From sequence record PV340577: a stretch of DNA of 48,757 nucleotides, one strand, 5' to 3'. Source of the stretch: Escherichia phage PhiR70_1. The notes beneath the pieces are model-generated. The model had not been told where the DNA came from. It saw only the letters and a program-made list of their open reading frames with translations, and did no database searches. The translations under genes were made by a program, and so were the position numbers. Positions 33,243 to 36,211 of this stretch are shown in pieces (position 1 is the first letter of the stretch; each line of letters opens with the position of its first letter).

Positions 33243-33658
33243 GTTTTGCCCTGAAACTGGCGCGTGAGATGGGGCGACCCGACTGGCGCGCCATGCTTGC
33301 CGGGATGTCATCCACGGAGTATGCCGACTGGCACCGCTTTTACAGTACCCATTATTTTCATGATGTTCTGCTGGATATGCACTTTTCCGGGCTGACGTAC
33401 ACCGTGCTCAGCCTGTTTTTCAGCGATCCGGAGATGCATCCGCTGGATTTCAGTCTGCTGAACCGGCGCGAGGCTGACGAAGAGCCTGAAGATGATGTGC
33501 TGATGCAGAAAGCGGCAGGGCTTGCCGGAGGCGTTCGTTTTGGCCCGGACGGGAATGAAGTTATCCCCGCTTCCCCGGATGTGGCGGACATGACGGAGGA
33601 TGACGTAATGCTGATGACAGTATCAGAAGGGATCGCAGGAGGAGTCCGGTATGGCTGA
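33224..33658 (+). CDS. T: gpT reading frame, expressed as a G-T fusion by programmed -1 frameshift
   Basis: Slippery heptamer GGGAAAG at 33218-33224 conserved; the T frame has no own start and overlaps the end of G. Confidence 0.85.
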   Translation: MFDGELSFALKLAREMGRPDWRAMLAGMSSTEYADWHRFYSTHYFHDVLLDMHFSGLTYTVLSLFFSDPEMHPLDFSLLNRREADEEPEDDVLMQKAAGLAGGVRFGPDGNEVIPASPDVADMTEDDVMLMTVSEGIAGGVRYG

Positions 33659-36211
33659 ACCGGTAGGCGATCTGGTCGTTGATTTAAGTCTGGATGCGGC
33701 CAGATTTGACGAGCAGATGGCCAGAGTCAGGCGTCATTTTTCCGGTACGGAAAGTGATGCGAAAAAAACAGCGGCAGTCGTTGAACAGTCGCTGAGCCGA
33801 CAGGCACTGGCTGCACAGAAAGCGGGGATTTCCGTCGGGCAGTATAAAGCCGCCATGCGTATGCTGCCTGCACAGTTCACCGACGTGGCCACGCAGCTTG
33901 CAGGGGGCAGAATCCCTGGCTGATCCTGCTGCAACAGGGTGGTCAGGTTAAGGACTCCTTCGGCGGGATGATCCCCATGTTCAGGGGGCTTGCCGGCGCG
34001 ATCACCCTGCCGATGGTGGGGGCCACCTCGCTGGCGGTGGCGACCGGTGCGCTGGCGTATGCCTGGTATCAGGGCAACTCAACCCTGTCCGATTTCAACA
34101 AAACGCTGGTCCTTTCCGGCAATCAGGCGGGACTGACGGCAGATCGTATGCTGGTCCTGTCCAGAGCCGGGCAGGCGGCAGGGCTGACGTTTAACCAGAC
34201 CAGCGAGTCACTCAGCGCACTGGTTAAGGCGGGGGTAAGCGGTGAGGCTCAGATTGCGTCCATCAGCCAGAGTGTGGCGCGTTTCTCCTCTGCATCCGGC
34301 GTGGAGGTGGACAAGGTCGCTGAAGCCTTCGGGAAGCTGACCACAGACCCGACGTCGGGACTGACAGCGATGGCACGTCAGTTCCATAACGTGACGGCGG
34401 AGCAGATTGCGTATGTTGCTCAGTTGCAGCGTTCCGGAGATGAAGCCGGGGCATTGCAGGCGGCGAACGAGGCCGCAACGAAAGGGTTTGATGACCAGAC
34501 CCGCCGCCTGAAAGAGAACATGGGCACGCTGGAGACCTGGGCAGACAGGACAGCGCGGGCATTCAAATCCATGTGGGATGCGGTGCTGGATATTGGTCGT
34601 CCTGATACCGCGCAGGAGATGCTGATTAAGGCAGAGGCTGCGTTTAAGAAAGCAGACGACATCTGGAATCTGCGCAAGGATGATTATTTTGTTAACGATG
34701 AAGCGCGGGCGCGTTACTGGGATGACCGTGAAAAGGCCCGTCTTGCGCTTGAAGCCGCCCGAAAGAAGGCTGAGCAGCAGACTCAACAGGACAAAAATGC
34801 GCAGCAGCAGAGCGATACCGAAGCGTCACGGCTGAAATATACCGAAGAGGCGCAGAAGGCTTACGAACGGCTGCAGACGCCGCTGGAGAAATATACCGCC
34901 CGTCAGGAAGAACTGAACAAGGCACTGAAAGACGGGAAAATCCTGCAGGCAGATTACAACACGCTGATGGCGGCGGCGAAAAAGGACTATGAAGCGACGC
35001 TGAAAAAGCCGAAACAGTCCGGCGTGAAGGTGTCTGCGGGCGATCGTCAGGAAGACAGTGCTCATGCTGCCCTGCTGACGCTTCAGGCTGAACTCCGGAC
35101 GCTGGAGAAGCATGCCGGAGCAAATGAGAAAATCAGCCAGCAGCGCCGGGATTTGTGGAAGGCGGAGAGTCAGTTCGCGGTACTGGAGGAGGCGGCGCAA
35201 CGTCGCCAGCTGTCTGCACAGGAGAAATCCCTGCTGGCGCATAAAGATGAGACGCTGGAGTACAAACGCCAGCTGGCTGCACTTGGCGACAAGGTTACGT
35301 ATCAGGAGCGCCTGAACGCGCTGGCGCAGCAGGCGGATAAATTCGCACAGCAGCAACGGGCAAAACGGGCCGCCATTGATGCGAAAAGCCGGGGGCTGAC
35401 TGACCGGCAGGCAGAACGGGAAGCCACGGAACAGCGCCTGAAGGAACAGTATGGCGATAATCCGCTGGCGCTGAATAACGTCATGTCAGAGCAGAAAAAG
35501 ACCTGGGCGGCTGAAGACCAGCTTCGCGGGAGCTGGATGGCAGGCCTGAAGTCCGGCTGGAGTGAGTGGGAAGAGAGCGCCACGGACAGTATGTCGCAGG
35601 TAAAAAGTGCAGCCACGCAGACCTTTGATGGTATTGCACAGAATATGGCGGCGATGCTGACCGGCAGTGAGCAGAACTGGCGCAGCTTCACCCGTTCCGT
35701 GCTGTCCATGATGACAGAAATTCTGCTTAAGCAGGCAATGGTGGGGATTGTCGGGAGTATCGGCAGCGCCATTGGCGGGGCTGTTGGTGGCGGCGCATTC
35801 GCGTCAGGCGGTACAGCCATTCAGGCCGCTGCGGCGAAATTCCATTTTGCAACCGGAGGATTCACAGGAACCGGCGGCAAATATGAGCCAGCGGGGATTG
35901 TTCACCGTGGTGAATTTGTCTTCACGAAGGAGGCAACCAGCCGGATTGGCGTGGGGAATCTCTACCGGCTGATGCGCGGCTATGCCACCGGTGGTTATGT
36001 CGGTACACCGGGCAGTCTGGCTGACAGCCGGTCGCAGGCGTCCGGGACGTTTGAGCAGAATAACCATGTGGTGATTAACAACGACGGCACGAACGGGCAG
36101 ATAGGTCCGGCTGCTCTGAAGGCGGTGTATGACATGGCCCGCAAGGGTGCCCGTGATGAAATTCAGACACAGATGCGTGATGGTGGCCTGTTCTCCGGAG
36201 GTGGACGATGA
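33651..36211 (+). pseudogene. H: Tape measure protein gpH, disrupted by a frameshift
   Basis: ORF 33651..33923 (MAEPVGDLVVDLSLDAARF...QLAGG) and ORF 33968..36211 (tape-measure body) are contiguous parts of one protein in different frames; the shift is at the G5 run 33903-33907; total span is 1 nt shorter than lambda H by coordinate offset. Confidence 0.8.

Follow-up and report, generated by a model that had tools for sequence, protein, structure and literature searches.

In a lambda-type genome, the tape measure gene H is expected to form a single ORF of ~853 codons, the length of which sets the length of the tail. In the record of Escherichia phage PhiR70_1 (PV340577), analyzed here as one stretch of 48,757 nucleotides (the window), the H reading frame meets a stop after 90 codons, raising the question of whether the gene is broken in the source DNA or only in the record. 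An earlier note, made from the sequence alone, had posed this as a choice between an inactivating mutation and a homopolymer sequencing error. That choice is supported, and it is narrowed by the privacy of the change, by the accuracy of the other homopolymer runs, by the reality of the same G5 form elsewhere, and by the absence of a recoding signal at the run.

The interrupted reading frame of gene H

The window is a mosaic lambda-family genome in prophage order, in which the integrase gene lies to the left, Nu1/A near 22 kb, and the tail genes between 31 and 45 kb. It starts within the lambda att core/P' arm (1 to 30) and closes with the core followed by CTTG, which belongs to the bacterial B' arm (48735 to 48757); since these ends are attL/attR remnants, the sequence is one cut in silico from a prophage integrated at the lambda attachment site and no assembly of virion DNA. 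Synteny is as for a lambda-type gpH, with G, T, and GGGAAAG upstream and the M, L, K, I, and J ORFs downstream (Table 1), and the gene is unambiguously lambda H. The role of GGGAAAG in the G/GT frameshift is established lambda biology, reviewed in PMC5009743.

Table 1. Features of the late operon around gene H, with positions in the window
Feature	Position	Strand	Basis or remark
IS4-family element, 1426 bp, in the E-FI intergenic hairpin of the late operon, upstream of H	28851..30276	+	
Tail assembly chaperone gene G, intact	32820..33242	+	Pfam Phage_TAC_2, E = 2e-59
GGGAAAG slippery site of the programmed G/GT -1 frameshift, intact	33218..33224	+	Motif
T reading frame of the GT chaperone, intact, overlapping the H start	33224..33658	+	Pfam Phage_tail_T; ORF list
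5' fragment of tape measure gene H	33651..33923	+	90 codons + TGA; ORF list, sequence
G5 run, one-base deletion site	33903..33907	+	Alignment to F95 prophage; siblings L032, L033
H remainder, codons 87-853 + stop (767 codons)	33908..36211	+	-1 frame translation; Pfam
First in-frame ATGs of the downstream H frame (33968, 33977)	33968..33979	+	Sole plausible restart points
Tail tip gene M, intact, overlapping the H stop	36208..36537	+	ORF list; synteny with annotated relatives

Translation from the H start at 33651 (MAEPVGDLVV...) reaches a TGA at 33921 to 33923 after 90 codons, giving the product ending ...QLAGGRIPG that the earlier note had described; its final four residues (RIPG) are out of frame, and the end of the fragment reads GCA GGG GGC AGA ATC CCT GGC TGA. 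The claimed continuation in another frame was also found, the -1 frame being free of stops from 33848 to 36208, where it reads ...GQNPWLILLQQGGQVKDSFGGMIPMFRG..., and giving QNPWLILLQQGGQVKDSFGGMIPMFRG... from 33908 through to the usual end of H. The longest ATG ORF in this frame is 33968..36211 (747 aa), and translation revealed no ATG, GTG, or TTG in it before 33968; in other G5 genomes, a 744-aa downstream product is called from the equivalent of 33977. The proposed switch point at 33903 to 33907 is indeed a G5 run, and alignment places the missing base within it, while the span of H (2561 nt versus 2562 nt in lambda) is one nucleotide short, just as had been noted. All close relatives listed have a 2562-nt H, save PhiR49_1 and PhiR49_1_star (2561 nt). 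Alignment to lambda H itself, which had been put forward as a check, agrees with a base missing in the G run but offers no homopolymer for comparison, lambda reading GGCGGG at this position. The break in H is a specific one-base difference from near-identical relatives and no chance pattern.

In silico, the insertion of one G yielded an uninterrupted 853-aa gpH that is identical to lambda gpH at 846/853 positions (7 residues differ) and differs by 1 aa from the F95 protein. Since a single base restores a full-length protein so close to that of lambda, the frameshift is the sole lesion in H, and the 767 codons downstream of the break are without decay. Pfam TMP_2 (PF06791) was matched by residues 54 to 87 of the 90-aa fragment (E = 2.5e-11; profile positions 2 to 35) and again by the 744-aa fragment (E = 2.8e-37; profile positions 61 to 207), the break sitting within this domain, and Tape_meas_lam_C (PF09718) was matched by the downstream fragment (E = 3.1e-21). 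The ancestral G6 run spans the GGG GGG codons of Gly86-Gly87. The window H belongs to a minority haplotype, also seen in the F95 prophage of E. coli, that encodes Gly86 by GGG and so has G6 and then CAGAATCCC; most H alleles carry the interrupted GGCGGG. As written, the gene is a gpH pseudogene, and it is an intact gene if the missing G is an artifact.

Nearest siblings and the accuracy of the assembly

The nearest siblings were recovered as draft contigs by using the exact J protein of the window as bait; the terminase allele was rejected as a sibling identifier, being too common. L032 (GCA_019756895.1) aligns to window positions 32964 to 46395 (13,433 bp) and L033 (GCA_013048245.1) to 33755 to 45600 (11,847 bp), each with 3 substitutions and one indel, i.e., with 99.97% identity. 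The sole indel is an extra G at 33902, in the H run. The claim that a G6 run would restore a single ORF was thus borne out twice, by the in silico repair and by these two siblings, both of which have G6 and an intact 853-aa H. With siblings of 99.97% identity lacking it, the G5 of the window is private; either it arose very recently or it is not real. An independent assembly of the window prophage was sought among phage records and 5426 complete E. coli genomes, where no sequence was closer than about 97 to 99%. The three substitutions that separate the window from its siblings (43219, 43458, and 43476) fall within 258 bp of the side tail fiber gene (42820 to 45312), one being nonsynonymous (G134S) and two synonymous, and this cluster could be a small recombination patch.

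At ~45360 to 45490, downstream of an 830-aa tail fiber with a Peptidase_S74 C terminus, all that is called of a tail fiber assembly gene (Caudo_TAP) is a 41-aa remnant, as in siblings L031 to L033. In mEp332 (L007), a Lom-like protein (38313 to 38915) matches the window Lom (42162 to 42761) over residues 1 to 161 and then continues in another frame; since the window Lom agrees with the other relatives, this frame change belongs to mEp332.

Six relatives with at least 94% identity cover 46.5 kb of the window, and the one small indel with a net effect on the frame that sets it apart from all six lies at the H run. Within these 46.5 kb the window has no further private small indel, and H is alone among its real genes in being split. 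The window contains 248 homopolymer runs of at least 5, 202 of which could be checked via shared flanks; 197/202 agree in length with all relatives and 4/202 with most, leaving the H run alone as deviant. The 13 checked runs of at least 7 include three T8 tracts, one A8, and one G7, all of the expected length, and the 13.4 kb covered by siblings holds 59 runs of at least 5 with one difference, again at the H run. Should the missing G be an error, it would stand alone. A split porin in PhiR68_2, considered as evidence on the error profile, was rejected because the split is not due to a homopolymer indel.

The IS4-family element farther upstream has 18-bp terminal inverted repeats, a perfect 12-bp target-site duplication (GGCCCTTCGGGG, at 28839 to 28850 and 30277 to 30288), and a 442-aa transposase ORF with Nterm_IS4 and DDE_Tnp_1 domains (Pfam), and no relative fetched aligns across 28851 to 30276. 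Among complete E. coli genomes, 5 have this junction too, but the prophages that carry it differ (sit locus, Qin/ydfJ site), as do their H alleles. In lambdoid late operons, the hairpin separating capsid gene E from FI thus looks like a hotspot for IS4 insertion; as a sibling marker the junction was rejected, its hits being independent and in different prophages. The insertion is a second lesion of a kind typical of a resident, possibly decaying prophage, which favors a genuine lesion in H.

Occurrence of the G5 run and the possible origins of the break

A 79-nt probe centered on the H run was placed 5697 times in the matching records (3480 from E. coli, 118 from phages), never with a perfect match to the G5 form; 8 chromosomes were identical to the probe save for one extra base. 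The G5 form was likewise found in 0 of 5426 RefSeq complete E. coli genomes. All 9 IMG/VR contigs with the haplotype are G6, and scans of metagenome and species-representative collections did not find the G5/G6 haplotype. Look-up of the exact 90-aa truncated product, in turn, returned 11 contigs from independent assemblies, all G5, which are different prophages with 96 to 98.6% identity to the window, nine or ten of them forming one lineage. In this lineage, a comparison of 12,976 bp between CP044191.1 and a Logan contig (ERR592345), both G5, gave 8 substitutions and no indel; two further G5 contigs are indel-free relative to CP044191.1, and three noisy assemblies have differing homopolymer deletions elsewhere and G5 in all. 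The G5 of the CP044191.1 lineage is inherited and real, and its H is decaying. Thus, real slippage at the H run occurs in nature, and lambdoid prophages that are frameshifted in H and otherwise intact persist. An A8 tract in the H of this lineage reads A8, A7, or A6 depending on the assembly (L013, 11079 to 11086, and equivalents in L014, L016, L017, and L020), a variation that gives several members a second frameshift in an already broken gene and is consistent with pseudogene decay.

G5 was found on at least two or three prophage backgrounds, versus ~20 G6 carriers. A comparison of local haplotypes to separate descent from recurrence fails, G5 and G6 carriers having one identical block of 313 to 789 bp in common. 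Among the searched collections, neither the genotype of the window nor its 744-aa downstream product was recorded, and there was no G5 in an independent assembly of its exact genotype. It is unlikely that the G6 tract of the minority haplotype is a recurrent natural slippage hotspot that repeatedly knocks out tail production, or only throttles it by way of low-level ribosomal slippage on the run, in lambdoid prophages that are otherwise intact. Protein P0018, 1307 aa long and 99% identical to the query, is labeled "tape measure protein [Trichophyton mentagrophytes]" and lies on a contig of 48,413 bp; with its Pfam domains of V, G, T, and H, it looks like a product of lambda DNA in a contaminated fungal assembly, the phage genes having been merged by a eukaryotic gene caller.

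We give an even chance to the reading that codons 86 and 87 of H have lost one base (G6 to G5) in a genuine and very recent deletion, the base then being truly missing from the source DNA. An identical G5 that is reproducible in another lineage, the good fit of the other 201 runs, and the presence of IS4 in the late operon all point this way, and the three private substitutions indicate that the window lineage has had time to diverge from its siblings; against this, the divergence is so tiny that a real indel is improbable a priori. A consensus or assembly artifact has a chance a little short of even. The DNA would then be G6 with an intact H, one G having been under-called in a long-read consensus, and polishing may have failed, H-like sequence being multicopy in E. 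coli. The median genome does have H-like genes in 2 places, an obstacle to polishing with short reads, and a sequence unbroken through an IS4 copy is probably that of a long-read, hybrid, or finished assembly, whose classic residual error is the isolated loss of one base from a G/C run. In noisy assemblies of a related prophage, other runs have lost a G (G6 to G5, G5 to G4), and the deposited lambdoid PhiR49_1 also has H split, at a neighboring G7 run. Moreover, the nearest siblings are G6 and otherwise identical over >10 kb around the run, the 767 downstream codons are undecayed, and the exact repaired gpH is already encoded in publicly available E. coli assemblies (P0136, 4 contigs), while the 744-aa partner of the broken product is absent. 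However, such an error would be the only one in 48.7 kb, with the other 201 checkable runs in agreement and no other private indel; a length-dependent error model would strike the T8, A8, or G7 tracts first; and the identical change is demonstrably real in another lineage.

We regard it as very unlikely that the frameshift is tolerated or compensated, either by low-level -1 ribosomal slippage on the G run, few copies of gpH sufficing per tail, or by restart at ATG 33968/33977 to give a functional two-piece tape measure. The -1 frame is open from 33848, so that a slip within ~75 nt would give a near-native protein, and the G5 prophage lineage persists with all other late genes intact; compensatory slippage also has a precedent in the "savior indel" of the G7 run in herpesvirus thymidine kinase (PMC5009743). 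The region itself offers no recoding signal, however: no X XXY YYZ heptamer was found in the zero frame from 33651 to 33923, and the 83 nt at 33908 to 33990 fold no better than shuffled RNA (minimum free energy of -30 kcal/mol versus a shuffle mean of -29.3, z = -0.18). Among the 3480 E. coli and 118 phage records, none shares the arrangement in two frames, the nearest siblings and thousands of relatives having a single ORF; the G5 lineage gains second frameshifts in H, signaling relaxed selection; and the break lies inside TMP_2, where a restart product would also begin, lacking about 105 to 108 N-terminal residues. That the G tract is a contingency locus, G6/G5 toggling tail production in lysogens, is scarcely credible. 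Both lengths occur on near-identical backgrounds (G5 in the window, G6 in L032 and L033, at 99.97%), a single observation, and G5 arose on at least two or three prophage backgrounds, but that one pair is equally explained by one mutation or error, and the recurrence by ordinary slippage or sequencing errors. Most H alleles have the interrupted GGCGGG, turning tails off brings no evident benefit to the host, and contingency repeats are typically longer than 5 or 6.

A synonymous GGC-to-GGG change created the G6 tract in the minority haplotype, and if the deletion is genuine, replication slippage on this tract would be the likely cause of G5. As an alternative route, a short gene-conversion patch may have come from a co-resident G5 prophage; given the identical block shared by G5 and G6 carriers, nothing else would betray a patch of up to 313 to 789 bp. 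Translation from the H start would halt after 90 residues, with 767 codons left without a start upstream in frame, and since there is no in-frame start or recoding signal, full-length gpH would arise only by rare spontaneous slippage. The protein is both ruler and scaffold for the polymerizing tail tube, so induction would be predicted to give DNA-filled heads with few or no tails. Multiple regions of gpH are bound by gpG, and it is on the gpH complex that the tail tube polymerizes (PMC5009743). Without full-length gpH no tails should therefore form, and a tail-less phenotype would be expected for a G5 prophage. Plaque formation would probably be defective unless G6 is regained by reversion, H is replaced by recombination with a lambdoid H, or gpH is supplied in trans by a resident prophage.

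Consequences and comparison with known systems

A genuine lesion would make this a very young defective prophage, unable to build tails alone; H should then be annotated as a pseudogene, and the lysogen is predicted to release no plaque-forming particles. If the lesion is an artifact, the record needs a one-base correction and H is a single 853-aa protein. Neither implies new biology. More modestly, the locus illustrates how an essential tail gene acquired, by a synonymous change from GGCGGG, a G6 tract prone both to slippage and to error, at which frameshifts recur in public assemblies. Under any reading, the lesion is of a known kind in a very well-known gene.

The closest reference is lambda gpH itself (853 aa; J02459, 10542 to 13103), the same gene in position and length and, after repair, identical at 846/853 residues, with the same G/T chaperone genes and GGGAAAG upstream and M-L-K-I-J downstream; it differs in having GGCGGG, without the slippage-prone G6 tract, whereas the frame in the window is interrupted at codon 87. 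The CP044191.1/ERR592345 lineage resembles the window in its G5 run, its 90-aa product, and an identical 313-bp block around the run, and its other late genes are intact in clean assemblies. Its prophage, however, is ~96% identical over the late region, and its lesion is inherited across diverged isolates, whereas that of the window is private. PhiR49_1 and PhiR49_1_star (PV340568 and PV340569) also have H split near the 5' end by one G lost from a G run, but there the run goes from G7 to G6 (lambda CAGGGGGGGCAG) and lies 36 nt downstream, in another H allele and another genome; in the PhiR49_1 record (L001, PV340568.1; 1767 to 1800) and in PV340569.1, H is annotated as two CDS. Finally, the programmed G/GT frameshift of lambda is, like the break in H, a -1 change in the tail assembly block, located a few hundred bases upstream; it relies on a slippery heptamer that is conserved in relatives, whereas the break in H has no heptamer, no structure, and no conservation.
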